A stretch of DNA of 10,415 bases from Nitrososphaeraceae archaeon. Lineage in GTDB: Archaea > Thermoproteota > Nitrososphaeria > Nitrososphaerales > Nitrososphaeraceae. This document shows, one piece after another, positions 1-4,913 of this stretch. Location of the stretch: NCBI GenBank assembly GCA_035250975.1, contig DATFEP010000070.1, positions 1 through 10,415 of the forward strand, in the 5' to 3' direction. The notes under the pieces were generated by a model. The model was not told where the DNA came from. It did no database searches and saw nothing but the letters and a program-made list of their open reading frames with translations. The translations under genes were made by a program, and so were the position numbers. Each line of letters opens with the position of its first letter. Position 1 is the first letter of the stretch.

Positions 1-2635
1 GTAGTTCTGTTTTGGATTGATCATCATCAGCATCAAAATGTGATACAGATAATTTTTTATCAGGTTTTGAATAATTCAAATTTGAGTTTTCATCTTTATT
101 AGATAATTTTGCAATTTTACAAATTTCTTCTGTGGAAATAGGTGAGTGGGGTGAAAGGGGTGAAGGCAATATAGAGATTGAGCTATTATAATGGTCTTCC
201 TTTTCTGTTATAGCATGACGTGTATCGCTATAATTGAGGTCATTATCAACTGATTCCAGATTATAATCTCTGTTATTCGGTATACCATTTTCATATAGAG
301 ACTGGTGCTTATCCCTAGGACTATTCATCGACTTCACCCTATTCACCACTGCCTCTTCTATTCCATAATTCATTATGTCAGTATCATTGTCATTATCTCT
401 ATCCTCATTTTCCTCGTTATTAGAATTGTTTACATCTTGTTTATCATTACCGACGTTGATGTCATCATTATTATTTTCATTATCATCGTCGTCACTTATT
501 TTTGGTCTGACTTTAATTTTGTTACTATATGTTTTACTAATCCTACTTATTATTTCAGTGTCAAATATGAGTATATTTCCATCTTTTCTATGTTTAGTCT
601 TTACACCAAAGATATCTCTCAATGTATTTGTTATAGTAGTTCTGTATATTGTGCCATATTCTTCTGTATGATATTCATTTGGTTTCTTATCGTCATCTCT
701 ACCCGGAATACTATCTGTCATATAGGACCAAAATGTGGAAAATGGAAATTCGTTACCATATTGAGATATCAAGTTTACTATTATAGGCAGTAATGCAGAT
801 TCTATAGTAGATTCTTTTCTTTGGTTCTTTAAATCCAAGAATTTTTGTAATGTTGCAATTACTATTTCTAAGGATTTTGTTTCATTAAATAATTGAATGG
901 GTGGTTTCGCTAATTCTTTATCTCTTCCATAAATCCCTATATCAATATCAGGAATAGGATCTTTGAAATGTACTAATCGATATATGAGCATTGTTTTTCG
1001 CAAGTCGGTTATCTCATTAAGCAGGCGTATATGTTCTAAACTTCCTGTTTCGGTTGGATTGAGTACCTCTTTGATATCATATTCTGCTATTCCTTTGTAG
1101 CAATGAATTGTAAATGTTCTATCCATTACTCCCTTTGCAACTGTTTGGTTTGGCGCTTTTTCTGCAATTATTATCTTCATACCAAAACTGAAAAAGAATT
1201 CTTGTTTGTTAGTAACAGTATTGATTCGTGAAACTCTCCCGTTATTGGAATATCCTGTTTTTAATACATTCATAAGATCCTGAGATTGGTCTATTCGTTC
1301 TGCCTCTTCAAGTATTATAGTGCATTGTCCTGGTTCAACGTTTCCAAGTAATCTAAATAGATTGGGAGCAGTAGGATCGGTCATTATAACAGGTCTGTAT
1401 GCAATAGCGCCAAAAGTATCACCAAATGAACTTTTACCACTTCCATTACCTCCAATAATAAGATCATAGTGAACAGTACTAAATCGATCTTGAAAGTATG
1501 AATGAAAAGCGTCTATGGCAATTGAATTTAATTTATGATCGTCTTGATCATTGTATTTTGAATTAGTGCAATTTATTTTTTTAAATAAAGAATCGTGATC
1601 CTCTTTATTTTTTGCTCTTTCTATGTATCTATTAATTTCATCTATATTTTCAAATTCATATGGTTCGTATGGATATTCTTCTGGTTGTGGTGGTACCAGT
1701 ATTCTACTATTTTCTTCAATCTGTTCTTTGATTTCAATGCTATTATCACTGCTATTATCGTAGCTAAGAAAACATGGTTTTCCATCTAGTATAATTGCTT
1801 CATATAATTTTCCTCTCCCTTTGTTGGAATATTTGTAAGTAGTGATTTTTGGTTTTTTCTTGTTATCTTTATTATTGTTACTATCATTGTCCTTGTTATG
1901 TTTATCATTCTTATGATTTAGATAATTATTGGTATTGTTAATTTTGCCGTTACTATTCTCATTTTCCCCAATGCTCTTATTTGTCAGGATCTGTTTTTCC
2001 AGATATTTTTCTTGTTCTTGTAGGATTTGATTTATTGAATCTTGTTTTTCCTTGAAATAGTTTTCAGGTGAAATATTGTCTTTCGTATCTTGGTTTATTG
2101 TATACACGGAATCATAGTTGGTGCCATCAATGAATTTGACCTTGAGAACTGATAATATGCTATCGTGATACATTTTAAAATTAATATCTTCAAAAATTCT
2201 TCCTACTGCTTGTTTTAGCACATATTTTCTTTCTTCTGGGACCAGTAATAATAATGCCTTAATAGAATCTAATGATAAATCCTGTAGACTTACTTTGATG
2301 TAGGGAACTCGTTCTAATAGAGAGATCTTTTTGTAATGCTGCGAAAATCTGTAGTAATATTTTCGATTATCAAGTATTTTCGGTTCATCAGAAAAATCTA
2401 GATCCAAATTGAAATCATACCAATTTTGTTCTTGAATTGTTTTATTACGAAATTTTTCGATTTGTTCCTTATACCTCTGAATATCCATATCTGTTGTTGC
2501 TAGTTGTTGTTTGATTTCATCACATAATGCTGAATTCGTATATACTTGCTCGGTTGATTTCATATAGTTATCGCCTCTACCTTTGTTTTTGTTAGCATCA
2601 ACATCGTTAGTCTTACTATCATAATACTGGGTCAT
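1..2635 (-). CDS. Large P-loop AAA+-type ATPase with a C-terminal wHTH-like region; putative replication initiator/helicase resembling DUF3631-containing proteins; >=878 aa, 3' end outside the window
   Basis: Manual translation from ATG 2635 (MTQYYDSKTND...), preceded by AAGGAG, finds no stop down to base 1. Walker A GGNGSGKS at 1453-1430 (aa 395-402), then TAPNLFRLLG, Walker B-like TIILEEAE (1321-1298), VLKTGY..GRVSR, FGMKIIIAE and a putative Arg finger VMDRT (R506). GRDKELAKP and a wHTH-like segment TITNTLRDIFGVKTKHRKDGNILIFD follow. It is probably missing from the ORF track because it has no stop in the window. Confidence 0.9.
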   Translation of the reverse strand, partial: MTQYYDSKTNDVDANKNKGRGDNYMKSTEQVYTNSALCDEIKQQLATTDMDIQRYKEQIEKFRNKTIQEQNWYDFNLDLDFSDEPKILDNRKYYYRFSQHYKKISLLERVPYIKVSLQDLSLDSIKALLLLVPEERKYVLKQAVGRIFEDINFKMYHDSILSVLKVKFIDGTNYDSVYTINQDTKDNISPENYFKEKQDSINQILQEQEKYLEKQILTNKSIGENENSNGKINNTNNYLNHKNDKHNKDNDSNNNKDNKKKPKITTYKYSNKGRGKLYEAIILDGKPCFLSYDNSSDNSIEIKEQIEENSRILVPPQPEEYPYEPYEFENIDEINRYIERAKNKEDHDSLFKKINCTNSKYNDQDDHKLNSIAIDAFHSYFQDRFSTVHYDLIIGGNGSGKSSFGDTFGAIAYRPVIMTDPTAPNLFRLLGNVEPGQCTIILEEAERIDQSQDLMNVLKTGYSNNGRVSRINTVTNKQEFFFSFGMKIIIAEKAPNQTVAKGVMDRTFTIHCYKGIAEYDIKEVLNPTETGSLEHIRLLNEITDLRKTMLIYRLVHFKDPIPDIDIGIYGRDKELAKPPIQLFNETKSLEIVIATLQKFLDLKNQRKESTIESALLPIIVNLISQYGNEFPFSTFWSYMTDSIPGRDDDKKPNEYHTEEYGTIYRTTITNTLRDIFGVKTKHRKDGNILIFDTEIISRISKTYSNKIKVRPKISDDDDNENNNDDINVGNDKQDVNNSNNEENEDRDNDNDTDIMNYGIEEAVVNRVKSMNSPRDKHQSLYENGIPNNRDYNLESVDNDLNYSDTRHAITEKEDHYNSSISILPSPLSPHSPISTEEICKIAKLSNKDENSNLNYSKPDKKLSVSHFDADDDQSKTEL
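141..167 (+). repeat. Three tandem 9-bp repeats GGTGAGTGG / GGTGAAAGG / GGTGAAGGC (iteron-like, left arm)
   Basis: Read directly at 141-149, 150-158 and 159-167; a G-rich patch in AT-rich sequence. Confidence 0.75.
321..347 (-). repeat. Three tandem 9-bp repeats GGTGAATAG / GGTGAAGTC / GATGAATAG on the minus strand (iteron-like, right arm, inverted relative to 141-167)
   Basis: Plus strand reads ctattcatc (321-329), gacttcacc (330-338), ctattcacc (339-347). Confidence 0.75.
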
Positions 2636-2655
2636 TTTCTTACTCCTTTTTCTAA

Positions 2656-2835
2656 TCATTCAAATTTCGATTTGCAATCGCTGCATACTCGTACAGGGAT
2701 TTGTTTTTGACCTGCAATGAGTACTATGTTTAAAGTTGCAGGGTTATTGCAATTTGTAGCATAACAAATATTTTTATTATAGGTATAATTTCTAGGAGAA
2801 ACAAATTTATCCTTAGGAATGTTGTTATTATTCAT
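2656..2835 (-). CDS. Small C4 zinc-finger/zinc-ribbon protein, 59 aa
   Basis: Manual translation: MNNNNIPKDKFVSPRNYTYNKNICYATNCNNPATLNIVLIAGQKQIPVRVCSDCKSKFE*. It has Cx4C...Cx2C, GGAGAAGG upstream of the ATG, and a stop 20 bp before the ATPase ATG. It is probably just below the ORF track length cut-off. Confidence 0.8.
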   Translation of the reverse strand: MNNNNIPKDKFVSPRNYTYNKNICYATNCNNPATLNIVLIAGQKQIPVRVCSDCKSKFE

Positions 2836-3091
2836 ACTTACAAATAACCTTCTCCATAGGTTTTTTGTTAGTACCTAGTTTACATGATTGTGGTCCAGGA
2901 AGACAAGAATCATGTAAACTATTCTTGTTTTTGCGTAATAGGTTTCTAATCCAATAAAGAATTTCGTATATCTTTCTTTGTATTGAATTAGTTACTTCTT
3001 TAACTATACTAAATCTAAATATTCTTTGCTGATTGTTACTTACAACCAGATTCCTATCAGATTTAAATATTTTAATTAATAATTTTTGCAT
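2828..3091 (-). CDS. Hypothetical basic protein, 87 aa (uncertain)
   Basis: ATG start, co-oriented with the element genes; its stop overlaps the Zn-finger ATG (ATGAATAA), as expected for translational coupling. No recognisable motif, and it contains a strong hairpin, so it may be non-coding leader. Confidence 0.4.
   Translation of the reverse strand: MQKLLIKIFKSDRNLVVSNNQQRIFRFSIVKEVTNSIQRKIYEILYWIRNLLRKNKNSLHDSCLPGPQSCKLGTNKKPMEKVICKYE
2876..2921. repeat. Perfect 14-bp inverted repeat with 18-nt spacer (hairpin)
   Basis: TAGTTTACATGATT (2876-2889) pairs with AATCATGTAAACTA (2908-2921); the spacer can add GTC/GAC pairs. Confidence 0.8.
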
Positions 3092-3291: not shown

Positions 3292-4854
3292 TTATATGAT
3301 TTTTTCTAGAACATGTCTTTTAATATGTGCTAATTTGGGGTTTTGTTGGACCAAATCAAAAATTGTATCAATTTTCTGGTTCATCTCATCATACTGTTGT
3401 TTTAGTTCAGATACTTCATTTTCTTTTCTTTGATTTTCTTCGATAATCTCATTATATGAATCATGAGATAACACCATTTTACACTTTACACAGAATTTCG
3501 ATCCTGGTTTATTAGGTTCATAACAATTAGGACATTCTCTAGATTTTAAAGCATTTGATAACTCTTGTTCTCTTATATTTATTATTCCCCTTTTTTCTAA
3601 TAGGATTTTTGAAGATTCATTGTTAAGATGGACATAAACCTGAGGCATCTTACTGGACATGGTCCATCCGGCGTGATCTCTTAGCACTGCTTCAGGAAGA
3701 ATTTTACTTTTTTCCGTAAGTGACGAATGTCTAAGGATATACACATTCCATGGTTTTGTAAGCATATTTCTTATCCAAGACTTGTCAGATTCTGGTATGG
3801 TATTATCATTTAATAGTCTTGGAAAATATTTTTTCTTGTAATATTCATATCTACTTTCTATTGCGTTGTAGGTTAATCTTGAACCATGATTATCTCCCAT
3901 AGATACAAAAACCCATGAATCAGGATTGTCGACATTGGTAGAATATTCTTCCTGGGATTTAGAAGATAAATACTCTTTTAAAAAAGGTATAGAATCTATT
4001 AACGGCACCTTTCTTGTTCCTGTCTTTCCTTCAACAATCCTAACTTCAGCATACTGTCTTTCTTTATCCTCCGTTACATGAAATTTAATATCTTTAATCT
4101 TTAGGTTTAATAGTTCATGTGGACGACAGGAGGTATCCACCGACAATGAGTGGTAGCATCTGTCTCTTGGACTTGGGCAATATTTTAGAAAGATTGCATG
4201 TTCCTGCTGGTCCCAGATATCTTCTGAATTGTATGACGATTTTTCCTTTCTTGGTAGCTTTCGAACTCCTCTCATACATTCTGGTGTTTCTCTCTTTCTT
4301 GGATCTGGTTCATCTGGATTGTACAACCACCTAAAGAATTTGTTTAGAATCATTTGTCTACCGTTATAGCTGCCAATCCACCTGTGAGTAGGATCTTCAG
4401 CAGACGACTTTCTGAGTTTATTCAGAAAACTAAGAATATCTTCTTTATTCATGTCTTTGAAAGATTTTTCATCTTGAAAATGATTTGACAACCAGACAAG
4501 AATCTTGATTTTACCTTCTTTTGTAGAATCTTTTATGTTTATTTCTGTCTGTTCCGCTAAAATATAACTGCAGATTTTTCGTGCATTCTCTACATTTCTA
4601 TTTGCTAATGTTCTTAAAATTCTGTTAAAATATGGTTTTGATAAAGACTCTGTTAAAGAATCTATCTTACGTTCTAGTTCTGCATATGATCTATTACCAT
4701 TTTCCTTTTCCTTTCCTTTTTTTGTTACCTGTAAAGTCTGCAAAGTCAATTTCGTTTTAAAAAATCTTTTCCTCGAAATTCCTTTGTAAATCTTATTCTT
4801 ATTCCTTTTTGTAGAATCCACGTTTGACGCGCGGGGAGTGGGATTCGAACCCAC
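3292..4854 (-). CDS. int: Tyrosine recombinase/integrase with C-terminal C4 Zn ribbon and coiled coil; true start uncertain (TTG 4749 or 4743 if independent of the tRNA)
   Basis: Catalytic set, numbered from 4854: R244 (SCRPHELLNL), K277 (EGKTG), Y372-x-x-R375 (YILRH), W397 (HAGW), Y407 (PQVYVH). CPNC...CVKC at aa 441-458. The first 8 codons of the track ORF (GSNPTPR) are tRNA T-arm and acceptor sequence, and the first ATG is only at aa 135. Confidence 0.95.
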   Translation of the reverse strand: MGSNPTPRASNVDSTKRNKNKIYKGISRKRFFKTKLTLQTLQVTKKGKEKENGNRSYAELERKIDSLTESLSKPYFNRILRTLANRNVENARKICSYILAEQTEINIKDSTKEGKIKILVWLSNHFQDEKSFKDMNKEDILSFLNKLRKSSAEDPTHRWIGSYNGRQMILNKFFRWLYNPDEPDPRKRETPECMRGVRKLPRKEKSSYNSEDIWDQQEHAIFLKYCPSPRDRCYHSLSVDTSCRPHELLNLKIKDIKFHVTEDKERQYAEVRIVEGKTGTRKVPLIDSIPFLKEYLSSKSQEEYSTNVDNPDSWVFVSMGDNHGSRLTYNAIESRYEYYKKKYFPRLLNDNTIPESDKSWIRNMLTKPWNVYILRHSSLTEKSKILPEAVLRDHAGWTMSSKMPQVYVHLNNESSKILLEKRGIINIREQELSNALKSRECPNCYEPNKPGSKFCVKCKMVLSHDSYNEIIEENQRKENEVSELKQQYDEMNQKIDTIFDLVQQNPKLAHIKRHVLEKII

Positions 4855-4913
4855 GTGTTCTTACGAACATGGGATTAGCAATCCCACGCCCTACCAGGCT
4901 AGGCGACCCCCGC
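4830..4913 (-). tRNA. tRNA-Ser(GCT), intron-less, CCA not encoded
   Basis: Minus strand GCGGGGGTCGCCTAGCCTGGTAGGGCGTGGGATTGCTAATCCCATGTTCGTAAGAACACGTGGGTTCGAATCCCACTCCCCGCG. Acceptor stem GCGGGGG/TCCCCGC, anticodon arm TGGGA-TTGCTAA-TCCCA, long variable arm TGTTC-GTAA-GAACA, T arm GTGGG-TTCGAAT-CCCAC, discriminator G. Confidence 0.97.

Follow-up and report, generated by a model that had tools for sequence, protein, structure and literature searches.

Two facing triplets of 9-bp repeats within an MCM/Cch-like helicase gene as the putative replication origin of a mobile element in Nitrososphaeraceae

The DNA stretch considered here (the window) represents the initial 10,415 bases of contig DATFEP010000070.1 of a Nitrososphaeraceae archaeon (assembly GCA_035250975.1). 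Its left end is occupied by the ORF (open reading frame) of a large helicase, which runs off the contig end and whose predicted core resembles the minichromosome maintenance (MCM) proteins, the Cch helicases of the staphylococcal cassette chromosome mec (SCCmec) and the Rep initiators of the pathogenicity islands found in Staphylococcus aureus (SaPIs). Two small ORFs, a tyrosine recombinase and a tRNA-Ser(GCT) gene sit upstream of this helicase gene. Within the gene, two arms of three 9-bp repeat units face each other, and these arms form a real, conserved cis element, which is most likely the replication origin of the mobile element that carries them. The features of the gene and of its repeat region are listed below with their positions, strand and, where coding, residues in amino acids (aa); P0002 refers to the full-length counterpart of the protein from another assembly.

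2 to 2659, minus strand: initiator-helicase gene, MCM/Cch/SaPI-Rep-like, truncated at the contig end, with 886 aa falling in the window
141 to 167, plus strand: arm 2, three 9-bp units, encoding aa 832-840
168 to 320, no strand assigned: spacer, 153 bp, 34% guanine plus cytosine (GC), coding, in the predicted disordered linker
321 to 347, minus strand: arm 1, three 9-bp units, encoding aa 771-779
2 to 499, minus strand: predicted disordered linker with both arms, aa 721-886 in the window (721-893 in P0002)
500 to 1882, minus strand: folded core with a beta-rich N-terminal part, AAA+ ATPase, helical lid and C-terminal alpha/beta subdomain, aa 260-720
524 to 805, minus strand: C-terminal helix/beta-hairpin subdomain, candidate repeat reader, aa 619-712 (predicted secondary structure)
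1430 to 1453, minus strand: P-loop GGNGSGKS, aa 403-410 (weak AAA_29 match at aa 398-416)

The initial annotation of this DNA had described two facing triplets of GGTGAA-type 9-bp units at 141-167 and 321-347, which are confirmed in the sequence together with the 153-bp spacer (168-320) that separates them. Arm 2, the gene-distal one, consists on the plus strand of the units GGTGAGTGG, GGTGAAAGG and GGTGAAGGC, and is of the TTCACC type when read on the coding strand. Arm 1, the gene-proximal one, reads CTATTCATC, GACTTCACC and CTATTCACC on the plus strand, and GGTGAATAG, GGTGAAGTC and GATGAATAG on the minus (coding) strand. Each arm thus contains two exact GGTGAA cores and one core with one mismatch, all at 9-bp phase, and the encoded peptides are those given before, i.e., VNRVKSMNS for arm 1 (aa 771-779) and PSPLSPHSP for arm 2 (aa 832-840). 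The overall number of GGTGAA words in the 10.4-kb window is unremarkable (6, with 3.9 +/- 2.0 expected and at least 6 in 45 of 200 shuffles), and four of these six words fall within 141-347. The whole assembly was then scanned with three versions of a detector that searches for three phased similar hexamers followed, 30-800 bp on, by three reverse-complement copies. With two of these versions, the window site is the sole match in the 2,488,707-base genome, and with the looser one there are six matches, namely the window site and five AT-rich or weak ones. The arrangement is therefore real rather than a chance pattern, because it is rare genome-wide even though the GGTGAA count is ordinary. Note that the spacer also contains a 12-nt direct repeat (ATATAGAGATTG / ATATAGAGACTG, at 169-180 and 293-304), which lies 2 bp off one arm and 17 bp off the other and may be due to chance.

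Homologous loci (referred to by L numbers) were collected from relatives' genomes (with a match in 15 of the 61 searched), from one genome per species (45 loci) and from metagenomes (80 of 137 relatives kept), and their zones were anchored at the end of the conserved core, leading to 123 anchored, 107 unique and 81 assessable zones (i.e., with at least 700 bp downstream). Two facing triplets were found in 52 of the 81 zones with the looser hexamer detector, for ~0.2 expected (~0.002 matches per zone) from its genome-wide rate (five other matches in 2.49 Mb). When exact 5-mers were required, 29 of the 81 zones displayed at least 3+3 phased facing copies and 16 more displayed 2+3 or 2+4 copies, while among 3000 random zones of the window's genome these two classes were met in 2 and 34 zones, respectively. 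The position of the arms also appears constrained, since in the positive relatives arm 1 starts at a median of 19 bp past the core end (range -13 to 101), with a median spacer length of 156 bp (range 62-604) and a GC content of 53-54% in the arms and 35-37% in the surroundings. Moreover, a test that does not presuppose a second arm identified a tandem triplet near the core end in 67 of the 81 zones, and in 33 of these 67 the reverse complement of the zone's own arm-1 word recurs at least twice downstream; as controls, the rate for words of other loci was 3.0%, and the word in its original orientation recurred in this way in 1 of 67 zones. The homologue comparison suggested by the initial annotation thus turned out in its favor: inverted triplets with a phase of about 9 bp are kept at the same place, despite differing words, spacers and frames.

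The initial annotation had also proposed that the constraint acts on DNA and not on the protein, and the relatives bear this out, because their words vary, the changes are concerted, the reading frames differ and 11 of the 52 loci have one or both arms outside the ORF. The words found among the loci include GTGAAG, CTGAAG, GTGAAC, GGTGAC, TGACGG, TGACAG, TGGGAC, TGGGGC, TGCGAC, TGCGTC, TATGAC and ATGTGA, and across loci the words of arm 1 and arm 2 always shift together. As an example, a single base change, identical in all six units, distinguishes the close relatives L097 and L098 (GTGAAGGC vs GTGACGGC), and between L004 and L029, two copies within one genome whose DNA aligns closely, GTGAA is changed to CTGAA in the three arm-1 units, with the complementary change (TTCAC to TTCAG) in two of the three arm-2 units. 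Irregular unit spacing is mirrored as well, with 8 then 9 bp in one arm and 9 then 8 bp in the other. Of the 52 positive loci, 41 have both arms inside the helicase ORF, 6 have arm 2 outside it and 5 have neither arm inside it. One and the same DNA word is translated in several frames (CCTTCAC as FT, PS or LH, and GTGAA as VN/VK, GE, SE or CE), and the spacers are poorly conserved, with 20 aligning pairs among 51 spacers. It should be noticed that L099 carries 2+4 units where the near-identical L098 carries 3+3, with 9 bp gained and lost in frame, which is what slippage within repeat arrays would be expected to produce.

The protein that encloses these arms is known at full length from P0002, which has 977 aa, is otherwise near-identical to the window protein and continues past the window end into a small Cys/His-rich C-terminal domain. 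The arms lie 51 and 112 codons past the end of the folded core, inside the ORF, in a stretch (residues 721-893) with a predicted local distance difference test score (pLDDT) below 50 in the whole-length model. The earlier description of a low-complexity tail behind a winged helix-turn-helix has to be corrected, since P0002 adds the Cys/His domain and the stretch represents a linker, predicted to be disordered. After arm 2, at aa ~895-950 of P0002, the domain shows a W-x-C-x-x-C ... K-H-x-C-K motif without a Pfam match, which is also present in many family members (L003, L031, L033, L035, L070 and L074); in L004 and L029, a different Cys/His ORF is placed between the arms. This C-terminal motif could serve as a second DNA-binding module.

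Sequence comparison assigned the protein to no family of Pfam, PHROGs or NCBIfam. For the window protein and a set of 24 members (A1), no MCM family match was obtained (the best being AAA_29, with 14-16 bits for a cut-off of 27), nor any match to D5_N or DUF5906. PDB sequence searches with the protein and with an 80-sequence profile provided spurious matches only, and the ESM Atlas returned unnamed clusters, one of which carries DUF3631 on 25% of its members (a lead only). The protein nevertheless contains the motifs GGNGSGKS and TIILEEAE, which we take to be the Walker A and a Walker B-type motif, and several of their residues are invariant in A1. Modelling of the entire protein gave a poor result (pLDDT 55.4), for which Foldseek returned nothing at E <= 0.001, while the core (aa 260-720), when folded with 80 diverse relatives, reached a pLDDT of 95.6 and a predicted template modelling score of 0.92. 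This core displays an MCM-type AAA+ fold, with matches to 3f8t (Z 16.1, 257 residues, 4.7 Å), 8x7u_B (Z 16.0, 263 residues, 3.9 Å) and 8s09_3 (Z 14.8), and by Foldseek to 8q67_F (E 7.2e-07). In addition, a structure search independent of Foldseek provided alignments over nearly the whole core model to Cch of SCCmec (5dgk_B, Z 14.0, 333 residues, model residues 1-447), SaPIbov1 Rep (8tch_B, Z 11.1, 316 residues, root-mean-square deviation 7.4), the SaPI5 primase-helicase (7ola_A, Z 11.1, 311 residues) and PriRep1 with DNA (7pds_A, Z 10.8, 283 residues), and those to 5dgk_B and 8tch_B extend to model residues 447-449. The modelled core fold thus resembles that of the MCM, Cch and SaPIbov1 Rep proteins. 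Its last ~95 residues form a helix/beta-hairpin subdomain in a position that corresponds to the C-terminal domain of Cch, SaPI Rep and MCM, and in the model this subdomain (aa 619-712) looks winged-helix-like by the order of its secondary-structure elements. The family is large, with 1795 cluster representatives at E <= 0.001 and 296 at E <= 1e-30, and all its named records come from Nitrososphaeraceae or Nitrosocosmicus assemblies; no relative was found among the IMG/VR viral contigs. In L026 and L027, the gene downstream of the helicase carries a PriX domain.

The remaining features of the window place the helicase gene on an integrated element.

3292 to 4854, minus strand: tyrosine recombinase (integrase) ORF (Phage_integrase, 9.6e-08)
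4829 to 4913, minus strand: tRNA-Ser(GCT), integration target, with the element/host junction at ~4829 (tRNA gene; contigs diverging at 4829/4830)

The integrase ORF abuts the tRNA-Ser(GCT) gene, and the contigs of all four public runs part from the window at 4829/4830. In one of these runs (X1), the contig depth, which is a rough measure, is ~5-6 over the element and 28 over the adjoining chromosome. Because the contigs diverge at this point and the depth drops to its left, positions 1 to ~4829 represent a mobile element that has inserted at the tRNA gene and is carried by only part of the population. Right of the junction are host genes (HTH_45, AsnC-type and RtcA). The remainder of the helicase gene was not found elsewhere in the assembly by tblastn with the C-terminal 97 aa of P0002, and neither a joint at the arms nor a circular junction was seen among the contigs of the four runs. 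Upstream of the helicase gene, within the small ORF 2828-3091, we noticed a 20-nt inverted repeat (2876-2895 / 2902-2921, 90% complementary, with a 6-nt loop) that could be an operator or a terminator-like hairpin. Another contig of the same genome (C56, ~40900-42231) contains a primase-like gene that shares 60% identity with the PriX-bearing gene following the L026 helicase; it is preceded at ~40930-40965 by GTATTCAC-type units resembling a remnant second arm, has no adjoining helicase gene and probably belongs to a decayed element. Many copies in relatives' genomes contain in-frame stops (L029, for instance, has a TAG within its Walker B region, around L029:4520-4522, and the copies of genome G010 have up to 8 stops), and some of these genomes have 10-16 matches. 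As far as such sequences indicate, relatives' genomes carry many copies of the element, often decaying.

Among known systems, the SaPI origins are the closest in layout. In these, rep is followed immediately by 6-12 penta- or hexanucleotide iterons, which flank an AT-rich centre with two or more per side in opposite orientations and are read by the C-terminal winged helix of Rep (PMC9371898, PMC7581432), and Cch2 of SCCmec likewise binds repeats just downstream of its own gene (PMC7581432). Our system shares with the SaPIs (SaPIbov1 Rep, SaPI1 Rep1 and SaPI5 PriRep5) the short repeats in two facing sets beside a helicase-initiator, with at least two repeats per side and the two sides oppositely oriented (3+3 in the window, and in 52 of 81 relatives), as well as the integrase-bearing island, the adjacent or fused primase gene and a repeat word that varies between islands. 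It differs by its archaeal host, by units at 9-bp phase with three per arm, by a spacer of ~150 bp without an AT-rich centre (in the window and in relatives), by the extra Cys/His domain that follows the arms and by arms that lie inside the ORF (as in 41 of 52 relatives), whereas the SaPI origin lies after the stop codon. The SaPI parallel drawn by the initial annotation therefore stands for the facing sets, to which the fold match can be added, but not for the AT-rich core. At the sequence level, no similarity was found between the window protein and solved chains. Cch (5dgk) and the cellular MCM proteins remain the best structural matches (MCM chains with Z 14-16 over 230-266 residues at 3.1-4.7 Å); Cch shares the AAA+ core with a C-terminal domain and the location on a mobile element, but identity in the structural alignments is 9-16%, no Pfam MCM match exceeds the cut-off, and the part of PMC7581432 available to us describes no origin of this architecture for Cch.

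Several other systems were considered as models. Mirror-symmetric inverted sites also direct the head-to-head assembly of two helicase hexamers in the case of the simian virus 40 (SV40) large T antigen and papillomavirus E1. Both have structural matches to the core (large T antigen 1n25_A with a Foldseek E of 5.8e-06, and E1 2v9p_A with Z 9.0), but those viruses read the sites with an N-terminal origin-binding domain, have adjacent arms in place of arms ~150 bp apart and use a non-coding origin. The alpha protein of phage P4 represents the same concept of a helicase-initiator that reads short repeats via a C-terminal winged helix. However, identity with P4 alpha or with D5-type primase-helicases of superfamily 3 (SF3) was rejected, since the window protein has no D5_N or DUF5906 domain, and D5-type chains score lower against the core (8hwa_A, Z 8.7; 8apl_A, Z 8.4). 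The match of TTCACC to the P4 core, which the initial annotation had pointed out, has to be seen as coincidental, given the many unrelated cores used by relatives and the lack of P4-like domains; the P4 iteron word itself was not confirmed in our literature search. Rep_3-type iteron plasmids combine a small winged-helix Rep protein with direct repeats arrayed to one side of an AT-rich region. This model was also rejected, the protein being a large AAA+ helicase and the repeats lying in two facing sets; indeed, the direct-repeat layout of such plasmids is not supported, with the same-orientation word recurring downstream in 1 of 67 zones. A functional parallel to SV40 large T antigen and E1 is mentioned in the available part of PMC7581432.

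Both domains that the window protein lacks, D5_N and DUF5906, are present in an ORF of L077 (4234-5634). A second, intergenic 3+3 facing set (TGGACAnnn three times, then TGTCCA three times) begins 37 bp past the stop of this SF3 helicase ORF (L077:5671-5845), and a similar set is found at L027:6682-6852. With spacers of 117-121 bp and 20% GC, these sets look like classical AT-rich origins, and the same origin format thus appears to be used by a second, unrelated helicase family of such elements. For elements of ammonia-oxidising archaea, no origin description was found in the literature. A survey of their integrated elements names replication proteins and, in its accessible text, no origin, the term 'iteron' being confined there to the reference list (PMC6563490). 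The annotation tables of this survey may list members of the present family as hypothetical proteins (PMC6563490).

Because the protein shares its fold, and the repeats their layout and position, with the SaPI/Cch initiator systems, an origin is the most likely reading of the arms, and we consider it likely, with some reserve, that they are SaPI-like iteron sets of the element's putative replication origin, embedded in the coding sequence of the initiator. Under this proposal, helicase rings would, after excision of the element, bind each arm in a sequence-specific manner, with one unit per subunit contact. The facing arms would lead to two complexes assembled head to head over the ~150-bp spacer, the presumed place of helicase assembly or melting, which they would open. 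A primase would then start synthesis; the relatives have it encoded by a gene just downstream or as an N-terminal fusion. The origin DNA would lie directly behind the folded core and, in most family members, be translated as a disordered linker, thus serving as coding sequence and cis site at once; if the arms are an origin, this would be an unusual case of dual coding. The repeat word and its reader would co-evolve, giving rise to many specificities. From the model, the reader is most likely the C-terminal winged-helix-like subdomain. In L097 and L098, the core is very similar except for three residues of the beta-hairpin (HTNKGNQ vs HRNKGSE), a sequence difference that hints at the hairpin as reader. 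Other candidates may be the C-terminal Cys/His domain or another protein.

Several observations weigh against the origin proposal. The window arms are just 75% complementary over 24 nt, and neither the window spacer (34% GC, for 31% in the gene) nor those of the relatives (0.35 GC, for 0.35-0.37 in the flanks) are enriched in AT. The depth of 5-6 over the element against 28 in run X1 gives no hint of episomal amplification, contig depth being a poor measure of it. A one-base change in the word separates L004 from L029, whose winged-helix-like regions are nearly identical; therefore, the reader may be elsewhere, or the differing base may go unread. The mirror symmetry of whole arms would equally suit a base-paired stem. 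Finally, 29 of the 81 zones fail the looser detector, of which 18 were read by eye. Among those 18, L042 and L049 show a single clear arm and L030 shows none, and the 15 others contain degenerate or differently arranged units: the arms of L031, L033, L051, L073, L074, L081 and L088 are degenerate, L101 and L109 combine an arm 1 of CTGACGCAC type with an arm 2 of GTGAATCAG type whose reverse complement agrees at 7 of 9 positions, and L064, L110, L114, L117, L118 and L120 carry TGATTCAC / GTGAATCA units in both orientations.

Other roles can be proposed for a conserved pair of arms. Repeat arrays in both orientations are typical of operators and plasmid centromeres, so that the arms could be a protein-binding cis site of another kind, i.e., an operator for the downstream replication genes or a partition (centromere-like) site. 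The next gene of L003, which starts with a ParB-like motif (by eye), the frequent location of arm 2 just upstream of, or within the start of, a primase-like gene, and the winged-helix-like region that stays constant between L004 and L029 despite the changed word would all fit such a role. We nevertheless regard it as unlikely, given that the arms stay next to where the helicase core ends (median 19 bp) whatever gene follows, whether primase-like, ParB-like or the Cys/His domain, and that the whole-length structural relatives of the protein use exactly such repeats as origins. Less probable still is a pairing of the arms in single-stranded DNA or in a transcript, where a long-range stem would act as priming site, terminator or regulatory structure. 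The arms do co-vary as reverse complements, with irregular spacings and variant units mirrored too (25/27 mirror matches in L037 and 27/27 in L097, by eye), and the window region folds with its arms paired (z of -2.27 as RNA and -1.41 as DNA). These z-scores are modest, however, and the window arms match in their 6-nt cores only (75% over 24 nt), with mismatches that are incompatible with G-U pairing on one strand. For a stem, the tandem triplication of a word is not required and would permit register slippage, and neither the 2+4 units of L099 in place of 3+3 nor the one forward and two or three reverse arms of L055-L058 suit it. Note that the comparison of one arm against the other in different registers is descriptive only, as its best register is by construction at least as good as a shifted one.

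The presence of a tyrosine recombinase encoded nearby, together with inverted repeats that bracket a short segment, may suggest that this segment is flipped by the element's recombinase, resulting in a phase-variable linker. This appears very improbable, since the 20 significantly similar spacer pairs (among 51 spacers) all align in one direction, without a single inverted case, and the contigs of the four runs revealed no joint at the arms. Furthermore, recombinase-type core sites are palindromic, whereas each arm is a direct triplet. As for chance, or selection on low-complexity peptide repeats (xSP, acidic/Gly) in the disordered linker, the small flexible residues encoded by the arms are indeed usual in linkers, and the overall GGTGAA count in the window is ordinary. 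We find this explanation scarcely credible, as peptide selection explains neither the reverse-complement relation, nor the concerted two-arm changes, the variable frames and the arms outside ORFs, and as the arrangement has one occurrence in 2.49 Mb.

Ammonia-oxidising archaea are key nitrifiers. Taking the replication origin as the role of the arms, our results favor, by a modest degree of belief, the reading that soil ammonia-oxidising archaea harbor a large family of mobile replicons not described so far. In this family, the gene of the MCM/Cch-like initiator-helicase would itself contain the origin within its coding sequence, the iterons would at the same time encode part of a disordered tether that links the core to the Cys/His domain, and the repeat word would have split into well over ten specificities, with all six units changing in concert. 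Compared to SaPI origins, what is new here is that the arms are usually translated, lack an AT-rich centre and lie ~150 bp apart. The helicase-initiator, the primase and the ~210-bp cis site would together represent a testable minimal replicon, and the natural word variants provide ready specificity swaps (e.g., L097/L098), which could reveal how MCM-like initiators read DNA. Small elements have been considered suited to shuttle-vector development, according to the text available from the survey of integrated elements (PMC6563490). If true, our proposal would provide the first defined origin-initiator pair for Nitrososphaeraceae elements, with a direct path to a shuttle vector, as well as a natural set of orthogonal, mutually compatible replicons, and the SaPI/SCCmec style of self-loading helicase origin would reach into the archaea.

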